63,484 nucleotides of DNA from Gemmatimonadota bacterium (GCA_041499215.1 JBGQJV010000001.1:1-63484), one strand, 5' to 3'. Positions 4,928 to 23,739 are shown, counted from the stretch's first letter. Numbers and translations are program-made. The notes: a model not told the origin generated them from the letters alone.

Positions 4928-5010
4928 ACCTGCCTCCCTGGAGGGCGGGCACGGCAAGGTGGGTCTTCGTGGTCGCCGCACAGCTGTGCGGCGACACGAG
5001 GCCCACCCCG

Positions 5011-5769
5011 TCAGGCTCGCGGATGCGCCTGCTGATACACCTTCTTCAGCCGCTCCACGCTGGTGTGGGTGTAGATCTGGGTCGTGCTGAGGCTGGCGTG
5101 GCCGAGCAGCTCCTGCACCGCGCGGAGGTCCGCCCCCGCGTCCAGCAGATGGGTGGCGAAGGTGTGCCTGAGCGAATGGGTGCGGAGCGCATTCCCTCCG
5201 ACAGTATCGAGCGCGCGATGCACGATCCGCTGCACGGTTCGCGGCGTGAGCCGTCGGCCCCGCCGCCCCAGGAACACCGCCCGGCGGTCTGCGCCAGGAC
5301 GGGCGGCGTCGGTTTCACGGAGCTCGAGGTAGTGTCTCAGGGCCCGACTGGCCCGGGATCCGAGCGGCACCAGCCGTTCCTTGCGGCCCTTCCCCCGCAC
5401 CTTCACCTGGTCGCTCAGCAGATCCAGGTCGAGCAGGTTGAGCCCGGTGAGCTCGGACAGGCGGAGCCCGCTTGAATAGAACAGCTCAAGGATCGCCAGA
5501 TCCCTCACCGCTCTGGAATCCCCGCCGGCGGCCCGGCCTTCGGCCCCGGCGAACAGCGCGTCGGTGCGGTCGCGGTCGAGGTACCCCGGCAGATGCCGTT
5601 CCGGCCGCGGGGCCTTGGCGGCGCGGACCGGGGAGTGTTCGAGACCATGGTGGGCCTGCAGGAAGCGATAGAGCGAGCGGACCGCGGAGAGCGCCCGGGC
5701 CATCGAGCGCTTGGAGAGTCCGCGCCGCTGCATCTCGCCGAGAAAGCCACGCACCCCCAGCCGGTCCAC
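5011..5769 (-). CDS. xerC: tyrosine recombinase XerC/XerD family (minimal ORF; conserved N-terminus continues upstream without a canonical start)
   Basis: [28 protein letters not shown]. Synteny trmFO-xerC-hslVU. See the finding on 5770-5943. Confidence 0.9.
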
Positions 5770-5940
5770 CCGACCGAAGTCCCAGTCCCCCCCGGTGTGA
5801 CGGTCCAGGAATTCGGTGAACGCTTCCAGGTCGCGGCGATAGGCCTTGACCGTATGACCCGAGACTTGGCGCTCCTTCTCGAGGTGCTCGAGGAAGGCGG
5901 CGACCTCAGGACGGACGGGCGGACGGGCGGACCGTTTCGG

Positions 5941-7407
5941 TCATAGACTCAGGCACCTGAGCCACTCCGCGAAGTCTGCCCGGGCCCGCTCTACCAGCAG
6001 CCGCTTCTTCATCTCCTTGCCCTTCTGACCGCCTGACCGCCTGGCCGCTTCCGGTCCCAGCACTTCGATGAGTCCCCAGTTTGCGTTCATGGGCTGGAAG
6101 TGCATAGGGTCGGCCTCTCGAAGATAGCGGTACAGCGCCCCGAGCATCGTGGTCGGCGGTGGGACGGTCACCGACTTCCCCGCCAGCCGCCGCGCGAGGT
6201 TGATCCCCGCCAGCAGCCCGGTGCCGAGCGACTCGGTGTAGCCCTCCACTCCAGTGAGCTGACCGGCGAAGAACAGAGTCTCGTCGTCCCGCGCAGTGAG
6301 GCCGGGGCCGAGACACGCGGGGCTGTTGATGTAACTGTTGCGATGAATGCTGCCATGACGCAGGAAATCCGCCCCTTCCAGTCCGGGAATCATCCCGAAG
6401 ACCCGTTTCTGCTCCGGGATGCGGAGGCGGGTCTGGAACCCCACCAGGTTCCACATCTGCCCCGCCCGGTCTTCCCGGCGAAGCTGCACCACTGCCCAGG
6501 GCTCCCGGCCGGACCTCGGATCCGGCAGGCCGACCGGTTTCATCGGCCCGAAGCGCAGGGTCTCGGGTCCCCGCCGGGCCATCTCTTCCACCGGCAGGCA
6601 GCCTTCGAAGTAGGGCACCTGGTCGAACTCATGCGCGGTGAACTGGTCGGCGGTCGTGAGCGCCGCGATGAACGCCTCGTACTCCTCGCGGGTCATGGGC
6701 GCGTTGAGGTAGTCGTCGCCCTCGCCCTTGCCATACCGCGAGAGGGCATAGAGCCGGGAGTGGTCCAGCGACTCATCGCTGACGATCGGCGCGATGGCGT
6801 CGTAGAAGGCCAGCGCGGTAACAGCGGCCGAGCCGGGCGGGGGCGAAAGTGCGGTCGCCGGTGTGGCCCCTGAGGGCACTGTGCCGGCCGGTGGGATTGG
6901 CGGGGCTTGGCCACCGGCCGGCCCAGTGCCCGAGCCCGAGTCGCCGATGCGGGCGAGGATTGCACTCGCCAGCGCCGGAGAGGTGAGCGGCCCCGTGGCC
7001 ACCACCCCCGGAGAAGGAAGGTCGACGACCTCACCGCGCTCGAGCGTAATGCGGGGATGGCTGGTCAGTTGGGCATGCACTCGCCCGGAAAAAACCGCCC
7101 GGTCCACCGCGAGGGCGGCCCCCGCCGGGACCCGGGCCTCGTCCGCCACGGGCAGCAGCAGACTCCCGAGCGCGCGCAACTCGGCTTTGAGCAGGCCGTG
7201 GGCGTTGGAAAGTTCGGTGGACTTGAAGGAGTTGCTGCAGACCAGCTCGGCCAGCTGATCGGTCTGGTGCGCGGCGGTTCGGACAGTGGGGCGCATCTCC
7301 CGGAGCCGCACCCGGACCCCCCGCTCTGCCAGGGCCCAGGCTGCTTCCGAGCCTGCGAGCCCCCCGCCCACCACCGTGACGACCGGGGTGCGGGAGGCCG
7401 GGCTCAC
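5941..7407 (-). CDS. trmFO: methylenetetrahydrofolate--tRNA-(uracil-5-)-methyltransferase TrmFO
   Basis: FAD motif VVGGGLAGSEAAWALA, CSNSFKS, FFAGQLTGVEGYTES. 4-nt overlap with the topA stop. Confidence 0.93.
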   Translation of the reverse strand: MSPASRTPVVTVVGGGLAGSEAAWALAERGVRVRLREMRPTVRTAAHQTDQLAELVCSNSFKSTELSNAHGLLKAELRALGSLLLPVADEARVPAGAALAVDRAVFSGRVHAQLTSHPRITLERGEVVDLPSPGVVATGPLTSPALASAILARIGDSGSGTGPAGGQAPPIPPAGTVPSGATPATALSPPPGSAAVTALAFYDAIAPIVSDESLDHSRLYALSRYGKGEGDDYLNAPMTREEYEAFIAALTTADQFTAHEFDQVPYFEGCLPVEEMARRGPETLRFGPMKPVGLPDPRSGREPWAVVQLRREDRAGQMWNLVGFQTRLRIPEQKRVFGMIPGLEGADFLRHGSIHRNSYINSPACLGPGLTARDDETLFFAGQLTGVEGYTESLGTGLLAGINLARRLAGKSVTVPPPTTMLGALYRYLREADPMHFQPMNANWGLIEVLGPEAARRSGGQKGKEMKKRLLVERARADFAEWLRCLSL

Positions 7408-9842
7408 GTCGCGGCCGCCTCCTCAGCGTCCATCACCACGATCCGGTGCTGGCACTTGAGGCAGGTCCGGGTCTCACCATCGGCCTTGCTGAATTTCTTT
7501 TCCATGCCCACCCAGCCGCAGTTGGGACAGGTGTCCGGCACGGGCCGGTTCCAGGTGGAGAAATCGCACGCCGGGTAACGCACACAACCCCAGAAGGACT
7601 TGCCGCGCTTGGTCCGGCGTTCGGCCAGGTCGCCGACATCACACTTGGGGCACTTCATTCCCAGCGGAATGGAGCGGGTGCCCTTGCATTCGGGGTAGCG
7701 GGTGCAGGCCAGGAATTCGCCGAACCGGCCGGTCTTGATCACCATCGGTGCGCCGCACAGCTGGCACTTCTCATCGGTCGGCCGGTCCGGGGCCTTCGCC
7801 TTCTTGAGCGACTTCACGTAGTCGCAGGTTTGCTTGTAGTTCACACAGGCGAAGTACGGACCGAACCGGCCGGTGCGGAGCTCCACCTTGGCGCCGCACT
7901 TGGGACAACGCTCCTTCTCCAGCTCCTCCGGCTTGAGGCCGTGCGCCTCGGCCACGATGGCGCCGAGATTCACCGCCGACAGCGCCTTGCTGAACGGGTC
8001 GTAGAAGTCCGACAGCACCTTCTGCCAGGCCAGCTCCCCCTCTTCGATCTTGTCCAGCTCGAGCTCCATCCCCGAGGTGAACTCCACGTTGAAGATCGAC
8101 GGGAAGCTGTCGACCATGATCCGCTCGACGGTTTCTCCCAGCTCGGTGGGGGTGAACCGGCGCTGTTCCAGCTTCACGTACTCCCGCGCCGTGAGCGTGC
8201 TGATGATCTGGGCGTAGGTGGACGGCCGCCCGATCCCGAGGCGCTCCAGCTCCTTCACCAGGCTCGCCTCGGAGAACCGGGGGGGCGGCTCGGTGAAGTG
8301 CTGGCTCGGGATGATGGCACGCACCTCCACCCGGTCGCCCACCTCGAGCGGCGGGATCGGAGCCAGGTCCTCGACCGACTTCCCTTCCTCGGCCTCGCGG
8401 CCCTCGGTATAGACCACGTGATAACCGTCGAACAGGAGCACCGAGCCGGAAACCCGGAACAGATACTTGCCCAGGTCGAAGTCCACGATCGTCATGTCGT
8501 AGACCGCCGGGTTCATCTGCGAGGCGACGAACCGCTGCCAGATGAGCTGGTACAGGCGGTACTGGTCCGGCTCGAGGTACTTCTGCATGTCCTCCGGCCG
8601 GCGCCGGACGTCGGTGGGCCGGATGGCCTCGTGGGCATCCTGCACCCGCGCCGCCTTGGAGGTGTACTGGTTCGGTGTGTCCGGGAGATAGGGCTTGGCG
8701 TAGTTCTTCGCGATGAACGACCGGACGCTCTCGATCGCCGCCTCCGACACCCGGACGGAGTCGGTCCGCATGTAGGTGATCAGGCCGGTCGGGGCATCCT
8801 CGCCGATCTCCATGCCCTCGTAGAGGTCCTGGGCGGCGCGCATGGTCCGGCGGGCGGAGAAGCCCAGCTTCTTCGCGGCCTCCTGCTGCAGCGTACTGGT
8901 AGTGAACGGCGCCCCCGGGCGCTTCTTGCGGTTCCGCCTCTCGACCTTGGTAACGACGAACTGCAGCTTCTGCACGTCGTTCACCACCGCCGTCGCGGCG
9001 GCTTCAGTGGACAGCTCGGGATTGTGCCCGTCGATCTTCTTGAGCTCGGCCGTGAACGGCTGGCCGCCCTTGGCACACTCCGCCGCAATGCTCCAATACT
9101 CCACCGGCTTGAAGGCGCGGATGTCCCGCTCGCGTTCTACGATCAGGCGGAGCGCCACTGTCTGGACCCGGCCGGCCGAGAGACCGGTCTTGATGCTCTG
9201 CCACAGGATGGGGCTGGCCTTGTAGCCCACCAGGCGGTCCAGGATGCGGCGGGCCTGCTGGGCGTTCACCAGCCGGTCGTCAATGACACCGGGCTTGGCC
9301 ATCGCCGCCTTCACCGCGTCCTTGGTGATCTCGTGAAACAGCACGCGGTGCAGCGGCGCCTTGGTCTCCAGCTGGTCCGCCACATGCCACGCGATCGCCT
9401 CGCCCTCGCGGTCCGGGTCGGTCGCCAGATATACCGCACTCGCGCGCCTGGCCGCCTTCTTCAGGTCGGCCAGGGTCTGGGTCTTGCCCTTGATGGTGAC
9501 GTATTCCGGCCGGAAGCCGTTGTCCACGTCCACGCCGAGTTTCCGGGTAGGGAGGTCGCGGACATGGCCGATGGTGGCCTTCACCTCGTAGCCCCGGCCC
9601 AGGTACTTCCCGATGCTCTTGGCCTTGGTCGGCGATTCCACCACGACGAGAGCCGTACCGCTTCCCACCTCACCTTCGTCTCCATCACCGCTGGTGACCC
9701 GCGGGGCGCGCTTCTTCCGGGCCGGTGCCGTGGCTACGGCCACCGGTTTGACCTCTGGCCTGGTGGCCGCCTTCACGGCCTTCGCTTCGCGAGGACCGGG
9801 AACACGCTTTGCTGGAACCTTGGGTTTCTTGGTCGTTGCCAT
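7404..9842 (-). CDS. topA: DNA topoisomerase I
   Basis: TOPRIM VVVESPTKAKSIGKYLG, active-site region LITYMRTDS, four C-terminal CxxC zinc-ribbon repeats, Lys/Ala-rich N-terminal tail. Confidence 0.95.
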   Translation of the reverse strand: MATTKKPKVPAKRVPGPREAKAVKAATRPEVKPVAVATAPARKKRAPRVTSGDGDEGEVGSGTALVVVESPTKAKSIGKYLGRGYEVKATIGHVRDLPTRKLGVDVDNGFRPEYVTIKGKTQTLADLKKAARRASAVYLATDPDREGEAIAWHVADQLETKAPLHRVLFHEITKDAVKAAMAKPGVIDDRLVNAQQARRILDRLVGYKASPILWQSIKTGLSAGRVQTVALRLIVERERDIRAFKPVEYWSIAAECAKGGQPFTAELKKIDGHNPELSTEAAATAVVNDVQKLQFVVTKVERRNRKKRPGAPFTTSTLQQEAAKKLGFSARRTMRAAQDLYEGMEIGEDAPTGLITYMRTDSVRVSEAAIESVRSFIAKNYAKPYLPDTPNQYTSKAARVQDAHEAIRPTDVRRRPEDMQKYLEPDQYRLYQLIWQRFVASQMNPAVYDMTIVDFDLGKYLFRVSGSVLLFDGYHVVYTEGREAEEGKSVEDLAPIPPLEVGDRVEVRAIIPSQHFTEPPPRFSEASLVKELERLGIGRPSTYAQIISTLTAREYVKLEQRRFTPTELGETVERIMVDSFPSIFNVEFTSGMELELDKIEEGELAWQKVLSDFYDPFSKALSAVNLGAIVAEAHGLKPEELEKERCPKCGAKVELRTGRFGPYFACVNYKQTCDYVKSLKKAKAPDRPTDEKCQLCGAPMVIKTGRFGEFLACTRYPECKGTRSIPLGMKCPKCDVGDLAERRTKRGKSFWGCVRYPACDFSTWNRPVPDTCPNCGWVGMEKKFSKADGETRTCLKCQHRIVVMDAEEAAAT

Positions 9843-11921: not shown

Positions 11922-13718
11922 TCAGTCGCCGGAGGCGTCGTCGATGATCCTGGGTGTCACCAGGATAATCAGGTCCTGGCGCTCCTCCTGATCATTGGTG
12001 AACCCGAACAGCTTGCCCACGATCGGGAGGTTGACCAGCATGGGAATGCCGGACTTGGTCTTGGTCACGGTGGTCACGGTTAGCCCACCGATGACCGCGG
12101 TCTCCCCGTCGTTGACCAGCAGCTGGTTCTTGGCGTTCTGCTTCTGGATCGTGAACCCCAGATCGGCGGCGGCCAGGGTCCGGAGATTGGAGCGCTCGGC
12201 CTCGATCTGCAGCATGATCTGCCGGTTGTTGGTGACGTGCGGCGTCACCCTGAGCGAGATACCGGTCTCCTTGAACTGCACGGTCGCCTTGGGCAGCGTG
12301 CTCCCTGTCCCCGACGCGCTGAAGTCGATGATACGGACCGGGATGTCCTCGCCCACCTTGATGATCGCCTCGCGGTTGTCCACCGTGGTTATCGAGGGCT
12401 CGGCCTGGACGTCGGCCAGGGTCAGTTGCTGCAGCGCCTGCAGGAAGCTGGTGAAGGAGTACCCGCCGATCGTGGTGGACCACAGCAGGCTGAGCGCCGG
12501 CTGGGCAATGATGGCGTCCGCATTGGCGATCGCCGCGACGCCGTCACCGGCGAAGACCACGGTGTTCTTGTCGAAGTTGTCCCCGCTGGCCGGATCGACT
12601 CGCGAGCGCAGCTTGTTGAAGAAGGGATTGTCGCTGAGACTCTTGCCGCCGAAGTCGTACTGCAGCCCCAGGGCCTCGAGGTTGGTCCGGTCCACGAAGA
12701 TGATCTTGGACTGGATGGAAACCTGCGGCGTGCGCACGTCCAAGTTCTTCACGAACTCCTGCACATCCCCGATCTTGCTGCGGGTCTCGGTCACGATCAG
12801 CGAGTTGGTGGTGGTGTCCGCAACCACCGCGCCCCGCTTGGAAACGATGGACTTGACGCTGTTGATCATCTGGCTGGCGCTGGCATAGTTCACCGGAATC
12901 ATCCGGGTGGTGAGCGGCTCGGTGGAATCGAGCGCCGCCAGGGTCGCCGGCGAGTCCACCCGGATGATGCCGCCGGGCAACTCGATCGCCTGCAGCCCCT
13001 GGGTGGCCAGCACCGCCGCAAACGCCTCGGTCCAGGGCTGGTTCTTGATCTCGGCGGTTACCTCACCCTTCACATCCTTGCCCAGCACGATCGTACGGCC
13101 GGAGAAGGCGGCGAAGCCGGCCACCACGTCGCCGATGTTGGCCCGGTCCCAGGTCACGGTGATCCGCGCGGCGGGCTGCTGTGCCGCGAGGATGGCAGGG
13201 GCGGGGCCCGGGGGCAGCTCCACCTCAGGGGCGCGGCGCGCCGCCACGGGCGGTTGCAGATCCGCGGGCGAGGCGCTGGACCAGGCGAGGAAGCTGTCGT
13301 CGGCGCCGAACCGCACCCGGATGGCGTCGCCGCTCTTCTCCAGGCGATAGTCCCGCGCGCCGTCGAGGTAGATGGCCACCCGGACCACGTCGGGCCGGAA
13401 CTGGGAGTAGCGGATGTCGCGGATGCCGCCGCGCGCGACCCCGTCGTAGGCTGCCCCGCTCTTCTGCAGGGTGGCGCCGACGACGTCGATCACCAGCCGG
13501 TCGGGCTCGCGCAGGACGAAGTCCCGCACGTCGACGGTCGAGCCCTGGAAGGCGATGACGATTTCGGCGTGACCGGGGGTCGGGACCACGCTCACCGCTG
13601 TCACCTCGGCGCCGGCGGGCGGATCATCAGCCCGGGCGGGCTGGGCCGCGAGAAGCGCTGCGGCACCGAGGCAAAGCCCCAGCGCCAGCGAGGAAACGAA
13701 CAGGAACTTGCGCGTCAT
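11922..13718 (-). CDS. pilQ: type IV pilus secretin PilQ
   Basis: Signal peptide. AMIN-like N-domain. Secretin C-domain (GETAVIGGL ... IPMLVNLPIVGKLFGF). Last gene of pilMNOPQ. Confidence 0.9.
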   Translation of the reverse strand: MTRKFLFVSSLALGLCLGAAALLAAQPARADDPPAGAEVTAVSVVPTPGHAEIVIAFQGSTVDVRDFVLREPDRLVIDVVGATLQKSGAAYDGVARGGIRDIRYSQFRPDVVRVAIYLDGARDYRLEKSGDAIRVRFGADDSFLAWSSASPADLQPPVAARRAPEVELPPGPAPAILAAQQPAARITVTWDRANIGDVVAGFAAFSGRTIVLGKDVKGEVTAEIKNQPWTEAFAAVLATQGLQAIELPGGIIRVDSPATLAALDSTEPLTTRMIPVNYASASQMINSVKSIVSKRGAVVADTTTNSLIVTETRSKIGDVQEFVKNLDVRTPQVSIQSKIIFVDRTNLEALGLQYDFGGKSLSDNPFFNKLRSRVDPASGDNFDKNTVVFAGDGVAAIANADAIIAQPALSLLWSTTIGGYSFTSFLQALQQLTLADVQAEPSITTVDNREAIIKVGEDIPVRIIDFSASGTGSTLPKATVQFKETGISLRVTPHVTNNRQIMLQIEAERSNLRTLAAADLGFTIQKQNAKNQLLVNDGETAVIGGLTVTTVTKTKSGIPMLVNLPIVGKLFGFTNDQEERQDLIILVTPRIIDDASGD

Positions 13719-14677
13719 TGGGTCTCCGCCTCCCTCTTGCGAAGCGACAGGGTCTCCTGCCGCTCGAATCCGATGTCCTCGACCGTGAAAACCACGTCTG
13801 TCTGCCGGATCTGTGCCACCTTCAGACGACCGAGCCGGTCACCCACCCGCATCTTGTATCGCTTCTGGCTGGTCTTGTCCCGCAGAATCGCAACACTGTT
13901 GTTGGCCCGCCGGAGATCCAGGTACACCCCGACCAGGAGCAGGTCGGAAAACTCCGGCCCCAGCTTGTCCTCGGTGATGAGCGAGGCGAACGGATCGCGG
14001 GCGCCGCCGGCGTAGGTGAAGGTCTCGCGCACCACTTCGGTCTCCCGCGCAACCTTGGTCGAATCGGTCCGGGTGCTGTCCGCCTTGGCTCGGCGGAGCG
14101 AGTCCTCCCGGGCGCGGGTGGCCAGCTGCGCGAGCGAGTCCTGTTTCGCGCGCTCCTTGGCCAGACGGATCGAGTCTGCCCGCATGACCTGCTGCTGTTG
14201 CGGGGTCAGGGCCGGCTTGCCCGGCGCCTGCGCCGGACCGGCAGGCGCCGCCGTCGGCTTCGAGGCTTCCACCGGTGCGCTGGCCACCGGCTTTGCGGCC
14301 GGCACCTTCGCCGTATCCTGGGTGGCTGTCGGGGCCGGAGTACCGGCCGGGGTGGTCGCGGCGACGGCCGGCTGTGCCGGCGGCTTGCCGCAGGTCTGCA
14401 GCACCTCGGGCTGGATCATGCCCGCGGGCGCGGACGCCACCTTCTTCTTGCCGGCGGGCGTCTTGGTCAGCACCGCGAGCACCGAGTCGGAGCAGCTGGT
14501 GAAATGAGCCCGGGCCAGCGAGTCCGCCGCAGCCGCCCTGCGGACGCTATCGCGCCGAGCGCGGACGGCGGCGAGGTCTACCGCTGGGGGCTCGTCTGCC
14601 GCCTTCTTGCCGCCACACGCGGCCAGACCGAGGATCAGCCCGAGCAGGGCCGTCCGGGCGAGCGCCTTAGGTGCCAC
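13715..14677 (-). CDS. pilP: PilP-like pilus assembly lipoprotein with a long Ala/Pro-rich linker
   Basis: Lipobox LGLAACGG. C-terminal beta-domain (VGVYLDLRRANNSVAILRDKTSQKRYKMRVGDRLG). Position between pilO and pilQ. Confidence 0.7.
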   Translation of the reverse strand: MAPKALARTALLGLILGLAACGGKKAADEPPAVDLAAVRARRDSVRRAAAADSLARAHFTSCSDSVLAVLTKTPAGKKKVASAPAGMIQPEVLQTCGKPPAQPAVAATTPAGTPAPTATQDTAKVPAAKPVASAPVEASKPTAAPAGPAQAPGKPALTPQQQQVMRADSIRLAKERAKQDSLAQLATRAREDSLRRAKADSTRTDSTKVARETEVVRETFTYAGGARDPFASLITEDKLGPEFSDLLLVGVYLDLRRANNSVAILRDKTSQKRYKMRVGDRLGRLKVAQIRQTDVVFTVEDIGFERQETLSLRKREAETQ

Positions 14678-15299
14678 TGGACTGTCCCTCCGGACTCGAG
14701 GTCTTCACGAAGGTACGGACCTGGAACCGGGCCTCCAGCAGCGCCCCGGAGCTGTCGCCCAGCGCCTTGGCGCGGGTCGGGTCGGCCACGCCCAGCGTCA
14801 GGTCCACCGGCACGATGATCCGCTGCAGACTGGCCACGTCCGAGAGGAACTCCCCCAGCTGGTCGAACCGGCCGATCACCGAGTACTGGTATTTGTAGGT
14901 CTGGAATGGCGCGGGACCCGGCTCGGGCGGCAGTGGCTGGAACTGGGCCACCTGCACACCCCGGATCTTGGCCCGGGTCGAGATCTCGTCCATGAGGTTC
15001 GCGACCTCGTTCCGGTCCGGCACCAGCCGCCGCATGAGCTCGAGGCTCGTGCGGTAGCCTTCCAGCCGGCGGCGCAGATCCTCCACGCTGCCCTGCGCCA
15101 GCAGCTTCTTGGCGCTGTCCGTCAGCAGCACCAGCGAGTCGAGCGTCTTCTGCCGTGCCGTGATGCTGTCGCGGGTCTGGGTGAGACCGCGGAGACCCAG
15201 GGTATCGAGACCGGTTCCGCTGTAGCCCAGGTACCCCACCACGATGGCGATGAGGCCGAGGAGCAGCGGGACCTGGCGTTCCTGCGAGATGCCGGCCAT
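14667..15299 (-). CDS. pilO: type IV pilus assembly protein PilO
   Basis: Single TM (VPLLLGLIAIVVGYLGY) followed by a coiled-coil. Operon position. Start at MAGISQE (Met50 of the ORF). Confidence 0.8.
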   Translation of the reverse strand: MAGISQERQVPLLLGLIAIVVGYLGYSGTGLDTLGLRGLTQTRDSITARQKTLDSLVLLTDSAKKLLAQGSVEDLRRRLEGYRTSLELMRRLVPDRNEVANLMDEISTRAKIRGVQVAQFQPLPPEPGPAPFQTYKYQYSVIGRFDQLGEFLSDVASLQRIIVPVDLTLGVADPTRAKALGDSSGALLEARFQVRTFVKTSSPEGQSSGT

Positions 15300-15301
15300 G
15301 G

Positions 15302-15988
15302 CTACCTCACCGACTGGCTGAGGGGCACCGTGCGGATATACGCCGAGTCCGCACGCTGGAACGACGCCTGAATGGTGAACTGGGTCACCGGCCGTTCCTT
15401 TTCCACGATGGTCTTGGCTTCGAGCGGAGTAACGTCCGAGACCCAAGGCGAGGCCTCGAGCTGCCGCAGGAACCTGGTGTATGCCTGGAGGTCCATGGTG
15501 CGACCCTCGAGGCGGAAAGTGATCGGTCGGGGGGCGGCGGTGTCCGCCGTGTCGGCTACCGCGGCCGGCGTCACCTGCGCCGCCAGGGTGGTGAGCCAGG
15601 TGTACGGCGGCAACGCCTTGGCCACTTCATCCAGCACATGCGGCCAGACGTACCGGTTGCCATCCACGCCGCGGATGGTGGAAATCTGGGCCAGCAGGGA
15701 ATCGCGGATCATTTCCGCCCGGCGCTTCTGCCGCAGCAGACCATCGAACCGCTTGTACTCGTCGCGGGCCGTCTCCAGCCGGGGTCCGAGGTCGTTGAGC
15801 TTGGCGTTGGCGGCGACGAAGGACACCCCGAGGAAGCCGGCGACCGCGAGACTCAGTGCGACCGAACCGACCAGGAACGGATCCTTGACCTTGGCGAAGA
15901 TGCCCTTGGCCCGTTCGCCGACGTCCTTGAACCCGCCCCCGGCGGCCTTGCGCTTCTGACCAGGGCGAAGATTGACGGTGATCATCAT
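15302..15988 (-). CDS. pilN: type IV pilus assembly protein PilN
   Basis: N-terminal MMITVNLRPGQKRK, then a TM segment (VGSVALSLAVAGFLGVSFV). Operon position. Confidence 0.8.
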   Translation of the reverse strand: MMITVNLRPGQKRKAAGGGFKDVGERAKGIFAKVKDPFLVGSVALSLAVAGFLGVSFVAANAKLNDLGPRLETARDEYKRFDGLLRQKRRAEMIRDSLLAQISTIRGVDGNRYVWPHVLDEVAKALPPYTWLTTLAAQVTPAAVADTADTAAPRPITFRLEGRTMDLQAYTRFLRQLEASPWVSDVTPLEAKTIVEKERPVTQFTIQASFQRADSAYIRTVPLSQSVR

Positions 15989-16013
15989 GGGTGGCGGACT
16001 CCGGGCTTCGGGC

Positions 16014-17057
16014 TCACGCGGCGGTACGCAGCGCCAGACCGATCGGCAGCATCAGGAGCGGAGAGATCTCGTCCATGTTCATGGTCGAGAAGACCCCCTC
16101 GGCGACCTGCAGGCGGGCGAGTGGATTGGCCAGCTCGACCGGCAGGCGCAGCCGGTCTCCCAGCACCTTGTTGAGACCCGGAATCCTACCCCCGCCACCG
16201 GTCAGCCACAGGCGGGAGATCCCACTCGCGGACCGGCTGGCCGACTGCAGGAAGGCCGCGGCGCGCTCGATACCCACCGCCAGCTCCTCACCGCGGGTCT
16301 CCAGGAAGGGGTCCAGGATCTCGTTGCGCTCGAAGCCCTGCAGCAGCTGATCGGCTTCCTCGGCCGAAAGCCCCCGCTCCCGCTGGATGTCCTCCCGGAA
16401 GCGCCGGGTCCCGACCGGCAGGTCCCGCGTCAGGACGGGGATGCCGTCCTCCAGGATGTTGATGTTGGTCATCTCGTGGCCGATGTTCACCAGCCCCACC
16501 ACCCCGCGCATCTCATCGGGGTAGTTGACCTCGAACGCGTTGTGCAGGGCAAAGGCATCAACGTCGATAACGGCAGGGGTGAGGCCGGCCTCGGCCAGGA
16601 GAGACACCTTGTTCTCCACCAGCTCCCGCTTGGCGGCCACCAGCAGCACGGTCATCTGCAGCCCTTCGCCGTCGGGGTCCAGGATCTGGAAATCGAGCTC
16701 CACGTTCTCCATGTCGAATGGCACGTGCTGCTCGGCCTCCCAGCGGATCACCTCGCGGGCGTCCGCTTCCTTCATCCGGTCCATCTGGATCTTCTTGATG
16801 ATCACGTCGCGCCCGCCGACCGCGATCACGACCTGCCGTGGCTTGAGTCCGGCGGAGGCGAGCAGGCCCTTGATGGCATCGGCCACGATGCCCGGGTCCA
16901 TGATTTCGCCTTCGACGATCGCGTCGTCAACTACGCTGGTGTAGGCCACCTTGGTCAGGACCGGATCCCCGGCGCCATGGGTAATGGCGACGAGTTTGAT
17001 CAGGCCTGACCCGATGTCCAGGGCCACAGTGGTCTTCTTCCGGCTGAAAAGGCCCAT
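16014..17057 (-). CDS. pilM: type IV pilus assembly ATPase-fold protein PilM
   Basis: Actin-like fold motifs ALDIGSGLIKLV, VNIGHEMTNI, LTGGGGRIPGL. Confidence 0.9.
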   Translation of the reverse strand: MGLFSRKKTTVALDIGSGLIKLVAITHGAGDPVLTKVAYTSVVDDAIVEGEIMDPGIVADAIKGLLASAGLKPRQVVIAVGGRDVIIKKIQMDRMKEADAREVIRWEAEQHVPFDMENVELDFQILDPDGEGLQMTVLLVAAKRELVENKVSLLAEAGLTPAVIDVDAFALHNAFEVNYPDEMRGVVGLVNIGHEMTNINILEDGIPVLTRDLPVGTRRFREDIQRERGLSAEEADQLLQGFERNEILDPFLETRGEELAVGIERAAAFLQSASRSASGISRLWLTGGGGRIPGLNKVLGDRLRLPVELANPLARLQVAEGVFSTMNMDEISPLLMLPIGLALRTAA

Positions 17058-17405: not shown

Positions 17406-17436
17406 GCGGCGGACGATCCGGTGGATCGCCCGCCGC
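17406..17436 (-). terminator. GC-rich hairpin downstream of pilin copy 1
   Basis: GCGGCGGaCGATCC-ggt-GGATCGcCCGCCGC, about 20 nt after the pilin stop. Weak T-run. Confidence 0.4.
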
Positions 17437-17454: not shown

Positions 17455-17859
17455 CTAGTAGCAGGACGGCGAGCCTTCCTGAACCACCGCCGCGTTCGGA
17501 GCAGGCGCGGTCCCGACGTAGATGCCGCAGGTCTGCGGCGCCTGGGTCACGGCCGGGTTGGTCATCGTGGCGTTCCACCCACCCGCCGTCACGTTGGCCA
17601 GAACCAGCACGTTGCCGGTGCTCGGGGTGAACGCGACCACGCCCGCGGCCTGCACCGCGCCAATCGCCGGCGCGTAGGCGTTGTTGTCCGAGAAGTAGGC
17701 TTCCTGCGCAGTCACCAAGTTCCGCAGGTCCGACTTCATCGAGGCCACGACCGCCTTCTGCTTGGTGTTGGCGAACTTCGGAATGGCGATGGCGGCCAAG
17801 ATGCCGATGATCACCACCACAATCAGAAGCTCGATCAGGGTAAAGCCCTTGCGATTCAT
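17455..17859 (-). CDS. pilA: type IV major pilin (copy 1, 134 aa)
   Basis: Prepilin leader and N-methylation motif MNRKG/FTLIELLIVVVIIGILAAIAIPKF. C-terminal Cys pair (C...SPSCY). GGAGG SD 4 nt upstream. Confidence 0.9.
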   Translation of the reverse strand: MNRKGFTLIELLIVVVIIGILAAIAIPKFANTKQKAVVASMKSDLRNLVTAQEAYFSDNNAYAPAIGAVQAAGVVAFTPSTGNVLVLANVTAGGWNATMTNPAVTQAPQTCGIYVGTAPAPNAAVVQEGSPSCY

Positions 17860-17931
17860 GCTGCCTCCAGATGAAGTACCCATTGAACGCGGACGTCGCG
17901 CAGCGAGACACCAGTACCGATTGCTCAGGGG

Positions 17932-17946
17932 GCAACGCGCATGCCA
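17932..17946 (-). promoter_or_regulatory. sigma54 (-24/-12) promoter candidate for pilin copy 1
   Basis: Minus strand TGGCATGCGCGTTGC, matching TGGCAC-N5-TTGC, about 75 nt upstream of the ATG. pilS/pilR lie nearby. Confidence 0.6.
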
Positions 17947-18082
17947 AAGAACATGACACCTCGCTAATGCAATAATCCAGAATGAGTTGGACCATGCGGC
18001 ACTATTCCTGGACCGGCCTCCCGCGGCCTTTCGGTTGCCGGATTCTGCATGAGGTCTTTCACCTCTGGACGAGTGGCCAGCC

Positions 18083-18724
18083 TCAGGGCCAGCGCCACCA
18101 TCCGCGCACCACTGGGAGCGTATGTGTCCGAAATCCGGACCGCCCCCATGATCCAGCGGTCGGCGATCGACCTGCCTCCCGCTCCAGCTCCACCCTGGGC
18201 ATCCCCGACCCCGAGCGACAGTCGCCCCATTCAGGGAGCGACTGCTCTGGCCCTACCACCCTGATAGTATAGTGACAGTAAGCCGACACTCGCATCGCCT
18301 CCGTGAGGGCCGCGCTCGAGGTCCGCTCGGGAGGGTCGGCCGTTTGGAGTTCAATGAGCTGGGCAACGCCATCCCTCGCCAGGACGGACCCGTCGGCTGT
18401 GATTGCTTCGCCAACCGACCGGAGCAGGAAAAGATGGGCGCCGAGGCGTATGACAGAGTCGTGGGTTCGGATCGACCCGGGAAGATCAGGTCCAGCGAGT
18501 GGTGCCACGATGCCGGGGACGAGGTCACTCGTGACCACCGAGTCCCACTCGGCTACGTGGCGGCCCACCGCGCCCGCAGCAGCCTCGTAGGCCTGGCGGG
18601 CAGCCAGCTGACGGTAACCGCTCAGCCAGCGTAGCCTGGCCGCCGCGAGAACCACGGTGGCGAGCGCCCCGGCGAGCAGCAGGGCCACCATCGCCATGAA
18701 CAGCGCCACCCCCTGTCGGTTCAT
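18083..18724 (-). CDS. PilX-like minor pilin / pilus assembly protein
   Basis: N-terminus MNRQGVALFMAMVALLLAGALATVVL is typical of PilX-type proteins. 4-nt overlap with the upstream gene. The C-terminal tail looks low quality. Confidence 0.55.
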   Translation of the reverse strand: MNRQGVALFMAMVALLLAGALATVVLAAARLRWLSGYRQLAARQAYEAAAGAVGRHVAEWDSVVTSDLVPGIVAPLAGPDLPGSIRTHDSVIRLGAHLFLLRSVGEAITADGSVLARDGVAQLIELQTADPPERTSSAALTEAMRVSAYCHYTIRVVGPEQSLPEWGDCRSGSGMPRVELEREAGRSPTAGSWGRSGFRTHTLPVVRGWWRWP

Positions 18725-19509
18725 TGCAGGTTCCTCGGCTGTAGCTTCACCCTGGCCGAGTCACCGGGGCGCGCAGGGGAGAGGCGCAATTCGAGCTGAC
18801 GCACCAGCGCGGGCTCGGCCACCTCCCGCCCCATGGCATCGCGGTAAGTCAACCGGAGACCCTGCGGCGAGAGCGGGCCGGTGACGGGCTGGATCGCCTC
18901 GCCTGCACTTTCCGATCTCGCTCCCAGCCACCATTCCCCCTGGGAGCGATACAGCCTGAGCTGCATGATCTCGAATGTCCGGACCGGCACGAGGGGAGGA
19001 AGGCCGGTCAGTCGGGAGGCATCAATGTCGGTGCCCAGTCTGAGCGCCGGCTGGCCGGCACAGCTCGAGCCGCTCACGCTGCTGATGGCCAGCGCTGCCC
19101 AGGTGCCGTGCCCTGGTGCGGAATCGGCGGACAGGAACAGCAGCAGACTGTCCCGACCAGGCTGGGGAGTGCGCCAGAGGCTCTGCTGGTCACGCCGAAT
19201 CCGCACCTGATCCGTCGCCACGAGACAAGCGAGCCCCGCCGAGCGGAAAGCGCGATAGCTCATGGAGTCCACCCCAAGCCGAAGGAGATCGGTAGCGCCA
19301 TCGGCACGCCCGACCTCGGCGAGCTCAGCCGCGAGCCAGGCGCTGGCTTGATCCAGGGTGCCATAGGCCTGGTCCCGCTCGAGCAGGATCCCGGTCGCGC
19401 GCCGCTGGCCGATCAGCGCTCGGGTCACTGCCGTGCCCAGCAGACCAAACAGCACCAGCGCAACCAGGAGATCCACCAGGGTGAGTCCTCGGCGTGTGGT
19501 CAGAGACAT
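18721..19509 (-). CDS. PilW-like minor pilin
   Basis: Prepilin-type N-terminus MSLTTRRG/LTLVDLLVALVLFGLLGT (Asp instead of Glu at +5). Start at Met6 of the ORF. Confidence 0.6.
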   Translation of the reverse strand: MSLTTRRGLTLVDLLVALVLFGLLGTAVTRALIGQRRATGILLERDQAYGTLDQASAWLAAELAEVGRADGATDLLRLGVDSMSYRAFRSAGLACLVATDQVRIRRDQQSLWRTPQPGRDSLLLFLSADSAPGHGTWAALAISSVSGSSCAGQPALRLGTDIDASRLTGLPPLVPVRTFEIMQLRLYRSQGEWWLGARSESAGEAIQPVTGPLSPQGLRLTYRDAMGREVAEPALVRQLELRLSPARPGDSARVKLQPRNLQ

Positions 19510-19871
19510 GGTAGGAAGGTCCATGCCGTCTCCGCGGAGGCTCTCCCCATGGATGGGAACGAGAGGACCAGGTTGACCTCGCGGCCGCCGGCCGCAGGAC
19601 TAATGTCCCACCGGGCCCCAGTGCCGGGTGTCCCGATGGCCGAGCCCGAGGCGACGGCGGAGCAGCGGCCACCCTGGGCGTCGAGCGCGCCCCTGAGCGA
19701 ATCCAGCACGGTGCCCGCCAGCCTCGCCGCGGTTGCTGCGCGCTCGCCTGCTGCCTCGGCCCGCAATGCCAGAGCGGTCGTGGCCGCGGCGCCGAGCACC
19801 CCGACAGCGAAAATCAGCAGGGCGACCAGACACTCGACTGTGGTCAACCCGGTGTTGTCCCGATTCATCAT
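19500..19871 (-). CDS. PilV-like minor pilin
   Basis: Prepilin-type N-terminus MMNRDNTG/LTTVECLVALLIFAVGVLG (Glu at +5). Start at Met23 of the ORF. Confidence 0.6.
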   Translation of the reverse strand: MMNRDNTGLTTVECLVALLIFAVGVLGAAATTALALRAEAAGERAATAARLAGTVLDSLRGALDAQGGRCSAVASGSAIGTPGTGARWDISPAAGGREVNLVLSFPSMGRASAETAWTFLPCL

Positions 19872-20026
19872 GCCCCGCCTGGTTGGATCGGGGCAAACGT
19901 TAGGGTCCGCAGGTTCCCGGGAAGGGCACAGATCCACGCGGAGCGGTGCGCATCAACGCGAGGGGGAAAAACCGCGGGGCGACGGATCGCTCCGTCGCCC
20001 CGCGTCCTTCTGAAGCACCCGGCCGC

Positions 20027-20431
20027 TTAGTAGCAGGACGGCGAGCCTTCCTGAACCACCGCCGCGTTCGGAGCAGGCGCGGTCCCGACGTAGATGCCGC
20101 AGGTCTGCGGCGCCTGAGTCACGGCCGGGTTGGTCATCGTGGCGTTCCACCCACCCGCCGTCACGTTGGCCAGAACCAGCACGTTGCCGGTGCTCGGGGT
20201 GAACGCGACCACGCCCGCGGCCTGCGCCGCGCCAATCGCCGGCGCGTAGGCGTTGTTGTCCGAGAAGTAAGCTTCCTGCGCGGTGACCAGGTTCCGCAGG
20301 TCCGACTTCATCGAGGCCACGACCGCCTTCTGCTTGGTGTTGGCGAACTTCGGAATGGCGATGGCGGCCAGAATGCCAATGATCACCACGACAATCAGAA
20401 GCTCGATCAGGGTAAAGCCCTTGCGATTCAT
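20027..20431 (-). CDS. pilA: type IV major pilin (copy 2, 134 aa)
   Basis: Protein identical to copy 1 except one residue (AIGAAQAAG vs AIGAVQAAG). GGAGG SD. TAA stop instead of TAG. Confidence 0.9.
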   Translation of the reverse strand: MNRKGFTLIELLIVVVIIGILAAIAIPKFANTKQKAVVASMKSDLRNLVTAQEAYFSDNNAYAPAIGAAQAAGVVAFTPSTGNVLVLANVTAGGWNATMTNPAVTQAPQTCGIYVGTAPAPNAAVVQEGSPSCY

Positions 20432-20509
20432 ACATCCTCCGCTGGTCGCGGCCCAGGGAGGCCGCATGGGGTTGTTAGTGAACTGCCGTGTTACCGGCAG
20501 ACCACTAAG

Positions 20510-20524
20510 GCAACCCGCATACCA
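20510..20524 (-). promoter_or_regulatory. sigma54 (-24/-12) promoter candidate for pilin copy 2
   Basis: Minus strand TGGTATGCGGGTTGC, about 80 nt upstream of the ATG. Flanking sequence is unrelated to that of copy 1. Confidence 0.5.
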
Positions 20525-20689
20525 ACCGCCCGCAATCCGCTAAGGTGCCTCGCGCCAATGTGTTAAAGAGTGTTGCACGGGTCCATCGGCTCGGATCGGG
20601 GTGGCAAGACGCAAGGTGGGGTCTGCGGACCGGAGCGCCAGGTAACCGCGCTCCGGCGTTTCTTCGCGCTAGTCAGGGCCTTTTTCACT

Positions 20690-22072
20690 TCATGAAGGGG
20701 CTGGAGTCTGCTGTTCCTCGTACCTGGAGAGCTTCCTATAGAGGGTGGAGGGGTCGATACCGAGGACCTCGGCGGCCCGCGTCTTGTTGCCGCCTTCGGA
20801 TTGAAGCACATACATAATGTAGGCGCGCTCGATGACGTCGAGGGTGGGGTTGGGATAAGTCCGCTCGGCTACCAGGGGATCCTTGCGCCGCTTGGTGATG
20901 CGCTCGGGCAGGGCCGCCGGCTCGATCACGTCACCCCGGGTCAGCACCCAGGCGTGTTCCAGCGCGTTCTCCAGCTCGCGCACGTTCCCGGGCCAGTCGT
21001 AAACCATGACGGCATCGAGCGCCTCCGAGGAGAGCGCCTTGGGCTCGGCGCTGTGCTCGGTGGCCAGCCGCTGGAGGAACGACTCCATCAGCAGGAGCAC
21101 GTCCTCCCGCCGGTCCCGGAGCGGGGGCAGGTGGATGGTGATCACGTTGAGCCGATAGAACAGATCCGAGCGGAAGCGGCCGCGGCGGGCTTCTTCCTCG
21201 AGATCACGGTTGGTGGCGGCGATGATACGAACATCGACCGGGATCGCCTCGGTGGCCCCGACCGGGATCGCCTCCCGCTCCTGCAGCACCCGGAGCAGCT
21301 TGACCTGGAGCGCCGGGGCCATGTCGCCTACTTCGTCGAGGAAGAAACTCCCTCCCCGGGCGGCGGCGAAGAGTCCCTGCTTGTCGCGTACCGCGCCGGT
21401 GAACGACCCCTTCACGTGCCCGAACAGCTCCGACTCCAGCAGGTTCTCCGGCAATGCTCCGCAGTTGATGGAGAGAAACGGACCGTCGGTGCGGTTGGAG
21501 GTATTGTGGATGTAACGCGCCACCACTTCCTTGCCGGTGCCGCTCTCCCCCTGGATCAGCACGGTCGACTCGGTGGGCGCGACCTGTTCCGCCAGCTTCA
21601 TGGTATCGAGGAATCGGCGGGACTTGCCGATCGGCCGGCTGACACTGGCGCGGTCCCGTCGCTTGATCTCCTGCCGCAGGTGCTTGTTCTCGACCCGCAC
21701 CGCGCGGTAATCGGAGGCGCGGCGCAGGATTGCTACCAGCTCGTCATTGGCGAATGGCTTCTGGATATAGTAAAAGGCGCCGGCGTTGACGGCCGCGATC
21801 GCGGTCTGCAGCGAGGCCTGAGCGGTCATCAGGATGACCGGGGTCATCGGGTCCTGCTCCCGGGCCGCGGCCAGGATGTCGAGCCCGGTGACCTGGGGCA
21901 TTCGCACGTCGGTGAGGACTACATCGTGGGTGCCGGCCTTGATCGCCTCGAGACCGGCCTTGCCGCCCTGCGCAGTGGTGACCTCGAAGCCCTCCTTCTT
22001 GAGCAGGATCCTGAGGGTATCGAGGATGCCGGACTCGTCGTCGATGATCAGGAGCGAGGGTTTCTGACTCAT
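20690..22072 (-). CDS. pilR: sigma54-dependent response regulator (PilR/NtrC family)
   Basis: Receiver domain (LLIIDDE...DVRMP). AAA+ GESGTGKE and GSFTGA loop. C-terminal HTH AAEVLGIDPSTLYRKL. Directly upstream of the pilin genes. Confidence 0.8.
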   Translation of the reverse strand: MSQKPSLLIIDDESGILDTLRILLKKEGFEVTTAQGGKAGLEAIKAGTHDVVLTDVRMPQVTGLDILAAAREQDPMTPVILMTAQASLQTAIAAVNAGAFYYIQKPFANDELVAILRRASDYRAVRVENKHLRQEIKRRDRASVSRPIGKSRRFLDTMKLAEQVAPTESTVLIQGESGTGKEVVARYIHNTSNRTDGPFLSINCGALPENLLESELFGHVKGSFTGAVRDKQGLFAAARGGSFFLDEVGDMAPALQVKLLRVLQEREAIPVGATEAIPVDVRIIAATNRDLEEEARRGRFRSDLFYRLNVITIHLPPLRDRREDVLLLMESFLQRLATEHSAEPKALSSEALDAVMVYDWPGNVRELENALEHAWVLTRGDVIEPAALPERITKRRKDPLVAERTYPNPTLDVIERAYIMYVLQSEGGNKTRAAEVLGIDPSTLYRKLSRYEEQQTPAPS

Positions 22073-23739
22073 GCCGCTTCCTCCGCCGCGCGCCGGGCGG
22101 GAAAGAAAATCGTGAAGGTCGTGCCTTTGCCCGGATGCGAATCCACCAGCACCATCCCGCGATGCGCCTCGACGGCGCGCTGCACGATGGCCAGGCCGAG
22201 ACCAGTACCGCCCGCCCGGCCGGTCACGAACGGCTGGAACAACCGCTCCCTAAGCTCCTCGGGAATGCCCGGCCCGGTGTCCTTCACCTCGAGGCACACC
22301 GGCTGCTCGAGGGTACAGCCTCCGGGCAGCTCGGCCACCTTCGCCGGCCGGGTGGTCACGGTTACCACCGCCGGTCCGCGGGCCGCCTGGACCGCATTGA
22401 GCAGCAGGTTGGCCACCACCCGGTGCAGCAGGTCCTCGTCCCCGTCGAGCACCGTCCGGGCCCCCTGCACCCGGATCTCGATCTCCGAGCGGCAGTCGGG
22501 GTGCTCGCGCACCAGCCGCGCGGCGGCGGTGACCACGGCCTGCAGATCCACCGGAACGAATTCGGTCGCCCGGACCCGGGCGAAATCCAGGAACTCCGAC
22601 AAGAGCCGGCTCAGGCGGTCACTCTCGCGAACGATCAGCTGGGCGAGATAGCGGTCGTCTTCGTCTCCATGCGCCGACCGGGCCAGCTGCTCCACCGAAC
22701 TCCGGATGGAGGCGAGCGGGTTGCGGATCTCATGGGCCAGAGATGCCGAGAGTGCCGCAACCGCCTCGAGCCGCTCCGCGCGCAGATTGAGCTCGTTGAG
22801 CCGCTTGAGATCGGAGATGTCGGTGAAGATCGCGGTCACCGAGGGGCGTCCATCGGAATCCCGTTCAAAGGTCGTCGTGGAAAGCCCGATGGGGAAGATC
22901 CGGCCGTCGGCGTGCTGCACGGTACCCTCGCCGCGGCTTACCTTGCGGCCGTGGCGGATGGCGGCCACCAGCGCCGCCCAGAGCTCGGGGGAGCGCAGCT
23001 TGAGCTGATCCAGCACCGGCAGCCCCGTCACCCGCTCGCCGTCCACCTGCAGCAGCCGCTCGGCCATGGGATTGATGAACGCGAGCCGGCCGGCGTCGTC
23101 CACCGTCATGACCCCCGAACGGATGTGCCGCAGAATCTCGTCGGCCTCGAGTCGCACCCGGCGGAGCTCGATCTCGAGCGTCTGGCGCTCCACCCCGGCG
23201 GCCCGGAGCCGCGAGGCCAGCACCCCCACCAGCACGTAGGCGGCAATGAACACCCCGACCTGGCCCCAGAACGCCAGACCCGGGATCGATCCCTGGAGCC
23301 ACATGCTGTCCGCGAAGTATGCTCCCGCGATGGTGAGGGCCACCAGCAGACCGCCACCGAAAGTCATCAGGAGGGCGTAGGCGGCGATGATCAGGATGTA
23401 CAGCGATGGGAACGGACTACGCGGCCCTTCGGTGAAGTGCACCAGCAGGGTGGTGAGTCCGATGTCCCCCAGGGCCTGCAGGTAGAAGAACAGCTGGCCC
23501 GGGCTCCGGTGCCGGAGCCAGACCACCCAGTAGCCGTACGCCGTAAGCACAAAGGCGAACAGCACCCCGAGGCTCACCAGAAAGGAGAGCCCCGGCTGGC
23601 TGGTCCACTCGAGCGACGCGAGTACCAGGGTCGTCACCGCGAGCACCAGCCGGGCTCCGAAGACCCAGGAAAGCAGTGTCTTCTGGTCCGGCAGGGCGCG
23701 GGCACCCTGGCGTGGCGGGGAGTTGGCCATCGAAGACAA
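22069..23739 (-). CDS. pilS: membrane sensor histidine kinase (PilS-like)
   Basis: About 6 N-terminal TM helices, a PAS-like region, H-box SLAHEIRNPLASI, and HATPase motifs DTGPGIP and GTGLGLAIV. 4-nt overlap with pilR. Confidence 0.75.
   Translation of the reverse strand: MSSMANSPPRQGARALPDQKTLLSWVFGARLVLAVTTLVLASLEWTSQPGLSFLVSLGVLFAFVLTAYGYWVVWLRHRSPGQLFFYLQALGDIGLTTLLVHFTEGPRSPFPSLYILIIAAYALLMTFGGGLLVALTIAGAYFADSMWLQGSIPGLAFWGQVGVFIAAYVLVGVLASRLRAAGVERQTLEIELRRVRLEADEILRHIRSGVMTVDDAGRLAFINPMAERLLQVDGERVTGLPVLDQLKLRSPELWAALVAAIRHGRKVSRGEGTVQHADGRIFPIGLSTTTFERDSDGRPSVTAIFTDISDLKRLNELNLRAERLEAVAALSASLAHEIRNPLASIRSSVEQLARSAHGDEDDRYLAQLIVRESDRLSRLLSEFLDFARVRATEFVPVDLQAVVTAAARLVREHPDCRSEIEIRVQGARTVLDGDEDLLHRVVANLLLNAVQAARGPAVVTVTTRPAKVAELPGGCTLEQPVCLEVKDTGPGIPEELRERLFQPFVTGRAGGTGLGLAIVQRAVEAHRGMVLVDSHPGKGTTFTIFFPARRAAEEAA

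Follow-up and report, generated by a model that had tools for sequence, protein, structure and literature searches.

In Neisseria, silent, promoterless and partial pilS cassettes donate diversity to a single expressed pilin gene, pilE. Other bacteria have more than one major-pilin-type gene: those of Xanthomonas form a tandem pair in a pilS-R-B-A-A-C-D arrangement (PMC6797930); Legionella pilA1 and pilA2 differ in function, one copy being dispensable (PMC7811196); and Thermus PilA4 and PilA5 build different filaments, as cited in the latter paper. Three lineage-specific Legionella genes, lpp1976-1978, have also been proposed to code for a priming complex (PMC7811196). As for duplicated genes that are kept alike, a survey of prokaryotes listed 26 long-lasting concertedly evolving genes, including tuf and a tandem flagellin pair, with no pilin among them (Wang & Chen 2018, PMC6053082); that paper cites Lathe & Bork 2001 for the concerted evolution of tufA/tufB. 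Here, we analysed two near-identical pilA genes, coding for predicted type IVa pilins, in a 63,484-nucleotide stretch of DNA from a Gemmatimonadota bacterium, an uncultured soil organism of the Gemmatimonadales (GCA_041499215.1 JBGQJV010000001.1:1-63484). The window, as we call this whole stretch, is one entire contig of a metagenome-assembled genome (MAG) of 4.74 Mb in 443 contigs, 96% complete.

The explanation that we favour, with a probability of roughly 0.8, is an old duplication of pilA, the copies of which would have been homogenised by recurrent gene conversion (i.e. concerted evolution), with matching regulatory architectures and with either copy dispensable. The process is a known one, here in a gene family for which we found no earlier report, and no new mechanism is involved. 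Our literature search retrieved no report of near-identical or concertedly evolving type IV pilin paralogues, which is not proof of absence, nor of near-identical pilins bracketing minor-pilin genes.

Two near-identical pilA genes bracket a minor-pilin-like cassette

On the minus strand, the locus reads pilS-pilR-pilA-[V/W/X-like prepilins]-pilA-pilMNOPQ. Its two pilA genes are the following (positions are those of the window):

20027-20431, minus strand: upstream pilA copy, 405 nt, 134 residues, A69, TAA stop codon, with a GGAGG ribosome-binding site (RBS) at 20436-20440
17455-17859, minus strand: downstream pilA copy, 405 nt, 134 residues, V69, TAG stop codon, with a GGAGG RBS at 17864-17868

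They are direct repeats with a start-to-start spacing of 2572 bp. The coding sequences (CDSs) differ at exactly 11 of 405 nt, namely nine synonymous positions, codon 69 (GTG/GCG, giving V69A) and the stop codon (TAG/TAA). The original prediction, made from the window alone, had described two such repeats differing by a single residue and at about 11 nucleotides, nearly all synonymous, with distinct stop codons; coordinates and counts all hold. Its statement that the similarity does not extend beyond the start and stop codons was likewise borne out, as ungapped identity just outside the CDSs falls to 30 of 100 positions upstream and 29 of 100 downstream.

Both proteins start with MNRKG/FTLIELL, and their N-terminus, MNRKG/FTLIELLIVVVIIGILAAIAIP, combines a short leader ending in Gly, a Phe at +1, a Glu at +5 and a hydrophobic N-terminal helix, corresponding to a class III signal. 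The prepilin N-terminal methylation motif is recognized above threshold by both PF07963 (E = 1e-9; 38 bits for a cut-off of 21.2) and TIGR02532 (38.2 bits for a cut-off of 16.3). None of the curated equivalog models was reached, the top one being NF041775 (PilA, Myxococcus type) with 66 bits for a cut-off of 400 bits, and the upstream PilA was not on record in an exact-protein look-up. The only two cysteines, Cys111 and Cys133, are close to the C-terminus and probably close a disulfide-bonded loop. The genetic linkage is that of type IVa pilins, with pilSR upstream, pilMNOPQ downstream, -24/-12 boxes before both copies and rpoN elsewhere in the genome. The product of both copies is thus predicted to be a type IVa pilin outside any curated subfamily, with a role as the main filament subunit.

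A third pilin paralogue of this genome (G000) is encoded at G000:C6:38323-38745 (locus L003; designations in G and L are our own, for genomes and loci). It is 63% identical and has the invariant N-terminal 30 residues in common. Nearly all members of the genus searched have one copy of it, which stays outside the homogenisation described below. We considered it as a donor of the synonymous variants in the 5' part of pilA and discarded this idea, since those variants do not track it.

Each copy carries its own predicted expression signals

Both pilA genes are surrounded by the same kinds of predicted elements:

20509-20524, minus strand: sigma-54 -24/-12 promoter of the upstream pilA (TGGTATGCGGGTTGCC), by motif match
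17931-17946, minus strand: sigma-54 -24/-12 promoter of the downstream pilA (TGGCATGCGCGTTGCC), by motif match
20602-20616, minus strand: possible activator site of the upstream pilA (CCTTGCGTCTTGCCA), about 95 nt upstream of the -24 box
18035-18050, minus strand: possible activator site of the downstream pilA (ATGCAGAATCCGGCAA)
19973-20004, minus strand: intrinsic terminator of the upstream pilA, 14-bp stem followed by a T run; -39 kcal/mol, z = -4.0
17406-17436, minus strand: intrinsic terminator of the downstream pilA, 14-bp stem followed by a T run; -37.9 kcal/mol, z = -6.0

The two promoters, 87-93 nt ahead of each ATG, are the only matches to TGGYAYN5TTGCY in the 63-kb window, for 0.09 expected. 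No sigma-70 promoter was found between positions 16900 and 20800. The activator sites are candidates only. TTGCG-N-TTGC motifs resembling the upstream candidate recur before other upstream copies, and six-base words of the motif CCGCAAAATCCGGCA are found in 12-13 of 16 upstream regions of downstream copies, about 100 nt before the -24 box. The terminator hairpins begin within about 20 nt of the stop codons. Each pilA thus has the predicted make-up of a complete monocistronic module, with its sigma-54 promoter, GGAGG, CDS and terminator.

The 5' and 3' flanks had been described as unrelated. This is correct as to their sequences, but they are alike in kind, both copies having a sigma-54 -24/-12 promoter, a GGAGG and a terminator with a 14-bp stem. 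Independent regulation of identical subunits had also been suggested. The flanks do differ in sequence, but both sigma-54 promoters adjoin the genes of the PilS/PilR pair. Independent control is therefore no more likely than shared control, and both promoters probably answer to PilS/PilR.

The leader of the upstream copy (20441-20500, minus strand) can form two hairpins, one of which, GCGGCC-N-GGCCGC, lies just before the RBS (-27.9 kcal/mol, z = -2.1), and a similar GC hairpin is visible in the upstream-copy leaders of other species. There is no comparable structure in the leader of the downstream copy, which does not fold better than shuffled sequence. A search of the pilA leaders for known RNA elements yielded only a sub-threshold match, on the terminator hairpin.

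The pilA copies evolve in concert

The pilin was retrieved from every one of 40 related species in a whole-genome search. Within the genus of this bacterium, many members have two pilA copies 2.4-3.1 kb apart on one strand, and the copies bracket the cassette in at least 12 related Gemmatimonadales species. In two-copy genomes, the copies are 93-99.5% identical at the DNA level, with zero to five residue differences. Between species, 70-85% of the pilin residues are shared, and there are indels in the head domain.

A maximum-likelihood tree of 29 pilA CDSs places the two copies as sisters within each of six independent genomes (G000, G024, G011, G009, G005 and G014), with support values of 97-100%. 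When the upstream copies are constrained to form a single clade, the tree is 635 lnL units worse (AU test, p = 1e-82). In the closely related G018 and G003, the upstream copies still group together, as would be expected if too little time had elapsed since these genomes separated. Synonymous sites tell the same story: paralogue dS is 0.02-0.16, compared with 0.31-0.83 for pilM and 0.23-0.66 for pilA orthologues between the same species. Gene conversion, one of the options offered in the original prediction, is therefore strongly supported by the within-genome sister pairs, the AU test and the comparison of dS with orthologues. Between species, dN is 0.04-0.20 for pilA and 0.007-0.043 for pilM, which marks pilA as a fast-evolving gene.

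The flanks behave differently from the CDSs, with no homology between copies within a genome and yet conservation by position between species. In the genomes examined, the -24 box is TGGCAY before every downstream copy and TGGTAY or GGGTAT before every upstream copy. The terminators are also conserved by position across species, and the sequence that follows the downstream stop codon (GCCTCGCAGGATGACAAGGCGGCGGGCGATCCAC...) recurs in other species. Since the flanks are conserved by position, the duplication predates the species.

Within the CDS, the first ~55 codons do not vary between members of the genus, and a conserved PNAAV.QEG.P.C motif is encoded by the last ~15. No position-specific signal was found in the conserved 5' part, where the copies group by genome as well. 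In L062 and L068, the repeat extends 50-60 nt beyond the stop codon, through the terminator, unlike elsewhere, and thus the boundary of the tract is not tied to the stop codon.

Layouts and copy number in related genomes

The arrangement pilSR-pilA-V-W-X-pilA-pilM is found in G000, G024, G011, G009, G005, G014 and G018, in the genome-collection loci L068 and L073, and, as far as their contigs reach, in G007 and the metagenome contigs L140 and L141. The contigs of bracketed relatives include long ones, of 255 kb, 368 kb, 1.1 Mb and 2.6 Mb. The G003 contig (L065) also has the bracket and then continues into another V-W. Other genomes carry only the upstream copy (G023), only the downstream copy (G012, L069, G021, G017, G001 and G019) or a tandem downstream pair (G006, L064, G004 and G015). 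Bracket and tandem are combined in L062 (CAWBHB010000001.1, a 2.6-Mb contig, positions 4001-8228), with one pilA before the cassette and two after it. All three genes are preceded by a -24/-12 box of their own; identity is 97.7% between the first two, and 93% between either of these and the third.

The original prediction had mentioned relatives with a single pilin as a finding that would speak against it. Such relatives do exist, but they are best explained as derived losses of one pilA unit, since they are sisters of two-copy genomes in the pilM tree and retain scars. Thus, G023 (upstream copy only) is sister to G000 with 88/85 support, and its pilX-pilM gap has kept a downstream-type terminator without promoter or CDS. 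Similarly, L069 (downstream copy only) is sister to G018 with 100/98 support, and its pilR-pilV gap has kept an upstream-type hairpin, although the match is only 30 nt long. Either pilA copy can thus be lost.

In other families of the order, pilA genes occur as tandem pairs or triples, mostly 83-98% identical at the DNA level, with unrelated spacers and flanks. Most of these copies have their own GGCAY-N5-TTGC box and a hairpin. Repeated and homogenised pilA modules appear to be a lineage trait and a general habit of the Gemmatimonadales.

Further differences in gene content were seen at these loci. In genomes devoid of the upstream pilA, a gene coding for a protein of ~548 residues lies between pilR and pilV (L052 = G001:C24 966-2612, and the same place in G019, G021, G017 and G006). 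Its product is probably a membrane protein (MTSTARDGSWRWYAAVALAAVLG...). In other Gemmatimonadales (L058, L067, L072, L075, L077, L078, L081 and others), pilSR-pilA is followed, ahead of the minor-pilin-like genes, by a gene for a divergent second pilin (~50% identity) and by genes for another PilS/PilR-like pair (30-45% identity), which suggests that two regulatory pairs are present in one pilus locus.

A model for the locus and alternative explanations

We propose that a single duplication of the major type IVa pilin gene took place in this Gemmatimonadales genus before its species separated, and that the copies came to lie upstream and downstream of the three-gene minor-pilin-like cassette, between pilSR and pilMNOPQ. 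Each would form its own transcription unit, with a possible activator site, a sigma-54 -24/-12 promoter, a leader of ~70 nt, a GGAGG, the CDS and a terminator. Non-reciprocal gene conversion within one chromosome would repeatedly overwrite one CDS by the other, and because of this repeated overwriting, the pair would evolve as a unit while pilA diverges rapidly between species. A conversion tract needs homology at both ends, for which the invariant codons of the N-terminal helix and the C-terminal PNAAV.QEG.P.C segment may be the anchors; conversion would therefore be confined to the CDS, and the position-specific flanks would escape it. The benefit is probably one of pilin dosage, with subunits that are uniform. 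We favour dosage because sets of two or three near-identical pilA units are common throughout the order, and most of these units have a sigma-54 promoter of their own.

Some points weigh against this model. No conversion event was observed directly, and all the genomes compared are MAGs. The dosage rationale and the control by PilR are inferred. The pilM tree is poorly resolved at depth, making the number of independent losses uncertain. Finally, 42 of the 58 paralogue differences in the six pairs fall in the 5' half of the gene (p = 0.008), which simple uniform conversion does not predict. The variable head is consequently the best-homogenised part, and this bias may reflect an edge effect, or selection for matching subunits or on the variable head.

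The high identity within genomes would also be expected if no conversion took place and pilA had been duplicated independently and recently in each species, the copies being alike because they are young, and tandem duplications do arise in some relatives (G006, L064, G004 and L062). However, each species would need to have reused the same two sites with their position-specific promoter type (TGGTAY versus TGGCAY) and terminator; the flanks, non-homologous within a genome, follow position between species, and scars of lost copies are present at the expected sites. We consider recent duplications very unlikely. Still less probable is that purifying selection on an invariant protein, another of the options offered in the original prediction, is by itself what keeps two old copies alike. 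It would account for the fact that nearly all differences between the copies are synonymous and for the first ~55 residues being invariant across the genus, but selection on the protein leaves synonymous sites free, and paralogue dS (0.02-0.16) is well below that of orthologues (0.3-0.8). Furthermore, the head domain of this fast-evolving pilin differs by 15-30% between species, with indels, yet it is identical within each genome. Purifying selection alone is thus refuted by the dS comparison and the tree. As purifying selection fails on the homogenised synonymous sites and independent duplications fail on the position-specific flanks, gene conversion is the explanation that we retain. As to an assembly or binning artefact, the window does come from a 443-contig MAG, and pilA interrupts the short-read contigs of near-identical strains (L138). 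Nevertheless, the copies differ in their flanks and at 11 positions, and each was reproduced by an independent assembly with its own flank and synonymous variants: the JGI metagenome contig L137 (99.94% identical) has the downstream copy, part of pilX and pilM-Q, and the NCBI MAG contig L138 (99.9% identical) covers pilSR and the upstream copy, again with the variants of that copy, and stops inside the repeat. As the bracketed layout is also present on 0.25-2.6 Mb contigs of relatives, the chance that the second copy is an assembly duplication, as the original prediction had contemplated, is negligible.

The repeats could also be substrates for larger rearrangements. According to the original prediction, recombination between them might delete the cassette (off) or amplify it in part of the population, as a structural switch controlling pilus priming. 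Direct repeats of 405 bp with 97% identity are adequate RecA substrates, and the G003 contig reads pilSR-pilA-VWX-pilA-VW..., its middle pilA being flanked by downstream-type sequence on the 5' side and by upstream-type sequence on the 3' side, as expected of a junction generated by unequal crossing-over. However, a cassette-less pilR-pilA-pilM arrangement was not found among ~45 genus-level loci from genomes and metagenomes, and the losses that we detected (G023 and L069) removed one pilA unit and left the cassette in place. A deletion would moreover be irreversible, i.e. a loss rather than a switch. As for the only amplified-looking contig, its last 1.3 kb are 98.6% identical to G018, compared with 88% for the rest, and a second pilSR-pilA contig in the G018 bin shares 96.5% identity with G003. 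For the G003 contig, which comes from strain-mixed MAGs, a real amplification is no more likely than a chimeric join made across the repeat, and we set it aside as probably chimeric. Altogether, the switch is improbable. Somewhat less so, but still unlikely, is that the identical pilA pair serves as built-in homology arms to exchange, duplicate or reset the major pilin and the matching V/W/X tip set as one module, swapped within a population or by transfer between strains. The very high divergence of the V/W/X genes, the various copy numbers (1, 2, tandem 2 and 3) and the hybrid-flank pilA of G003 are compatible with this idea. If it were true, the whole pilus surface could be changed at once, e.g. 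under phage or predator pressure.

Independently of these alternatives, we observed that the MAGs of G003:C2 (L065) and G018:C15 (L104) come from a single project, with OPERA contigs, that each of them holds sequence of the other's type of pilus locus, and that the identity of the G003 contig to G018 jumps from 88% to 98.6% exactly at a pilA copy. Chimeric assembly, or else real exchange, is likely to occur at the pilA repeat.

The cassette and the surrounding pilus genes

The three genes between the pilA copies are the following:

19500-19871, minus strand: PilV-like prepilin, 123 residues, NTG/LTTVE
18721-19524, minus strand: PilW-like prepilin (by position), 267 residues, RRG/LTLVD; a lineage-specific family
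18083-18724, minus strand: PilX-like protein, 213 residues, NRQG/VALFM, no Glu5

All three have prepilin-type N-termini, G/LTTVE for V, G/LTLVD for W, some homologues of which carry PF07963, and G/VALFM for X. GspK/PilX-type proteins likewise lack Glu5. The N-terminus of the PilV-like protein matches TIGR02523 (type_IV_pilV) with E = 2.4e-9 and 37.8 bits, under the 52.2-bit cut-off, and N_methyl with E = 0.009. Homologues of the PilW-like protein were found in Gemmatimonadales only, and its matches to GspI/GspJ have E-values of 0.007-0.07. Its AlphaFold2 model (pLDDT 92) shows a helix spanning residues 16-68 (53 residues) and a beta-rich head, for which a fold search returned no PDB match with E < 0.001. 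In the model of the PilX-like protein, residues 1-133 are confident and form a helix-plus-sheet N-terminal half. In the PDB, it matched best with 6qvi_B, the minor pilin ComZ of Thermus, with a probability of 0.99 but with E = 0.075 and a TM score of 0.31. Profile searches against Pfam, NCBIfam and PDB gave nothing significant for W and X, and the PilX-like protein matched no Pfam or NCBIfam family. That the copies enclose three PilV/W/X-like genes, as the original prediction had it, holds insofar as three prepilin-like open reading frames are present between them, but no family model scores above its curated cut-off. The designation 'PilV/W/X-like' is reasonable in view of position and architecture, but does not amount to established membership of these families. 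Between relatives, the V/W/X genes are 33-55% identical where PilM is 93-99% identical.

Alignments show that the PilX-like protein is shortened relative to its orthologues of 336-366 residues. It has 213 residues here and 143-144 in the two nearest two-copy relatives, and 336-366 in most of the genus (e.g. L063:2768-3775, L065:5782-6879 and L069:2678-3775). In the long orthologues, a Cys-rich stretch is added in the middle, and the C-terminal part weakly resembles ice-binding and bactofilin beta-helices; a conserved RGWWRWP-like motif ends all versions. We did not retain an ice-binding or bactofilin assignment, since the weak matches fall in the beta-helix-like C-terminal part, which is absent from the protein of this genome.

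The genes on either side of the pilA-cassette-pilA block are the following:

22069-23739, minus strand: pilS-like sensor histidine kinase gene (Pfam 6TM_PilS, PAS, HisKA and HATPase_c)
20690-22072, minus strand: pilR-like gene for a sigma-54-dependent response regulator (Pfam Response_reg, Sigma54_activat with E = 5e-70, and HTH_8)
11922-17057, minus strand: pilM-pilN-pilO-pilP-like-pilQ, assembly and secretin genes (Pfam PilM_2 and Secretin; PilN and PilO called on L137)

Comparison with known systems

This locus provides a clean, well-replicated natural case of a fast-evolving bacterial surface protein whose genes evolve in concert. It is also of practical relevance for annotation, as near-identical pilA copies interrupt short-read contigs and can lead to chimeric joins, and for pilin phylogenies, as homogenised paralogues mimic recent duplications. 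For the pilus biology of an abundant and almost unstudied soil phylum, it raises the questions of dosage, subunit uniformity and sigma-54 control.

The cassette resembles Legionella lpp1976-1978 and the GspI-J-K sets in being composed of three adjacent small genes whose products have prepilin-like N-termini and weak or no family matches. As in core minor-pilin sets, its third gene product has no Glu5, and it is located inside the pilus locus. In contrast with those sets, it has no FimU/GspH-like or PilY1-like gene, and membership of the PilV, PilW or PilX families is not established.

As in Xanthomonas, Legionella and Thermus, there is more than one major-pilin-type gene, and the Xanthomonas pair also adjoins pilSR. 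However, the paralogues of those bacteria are not described as near-identical and do not bracket minor-pilin genes. With Neisseria pilE/pilS, the locus would have in common the non-reciprocal recombination of pilin sequences within one chromosome, with conserved segments flanking variable ones. In contrast with Neisseria, both pilA copies are complete, with promoter, RBS, ATG and terminator, and the pilins stay uniform instead of being diversified. We therefore rejected antigenic variation by silent cassettes, as both genes are full length with a promoter and there is no promoterless, 5'-truncated donor.

The closest parallel is tufA/tufB, also an old duplication in different contexts, with paralogues closer within a genome than orthologues between genomes, homogenised synonymous sites, similarity essentially limited to the CDS and occasional loss of a copy. 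Among the genes of the prokaryote survey, the only filament protein is the flagellin of the tandem pair, and there is no type IV pilin. Unlike tuf, a slowly evolving housekeeping gene, pilA codes for a fast-evolving subunit of a surface filament, and its copies, direct repeats on either side of functionally related genes, are separated by only 2.6 kb.

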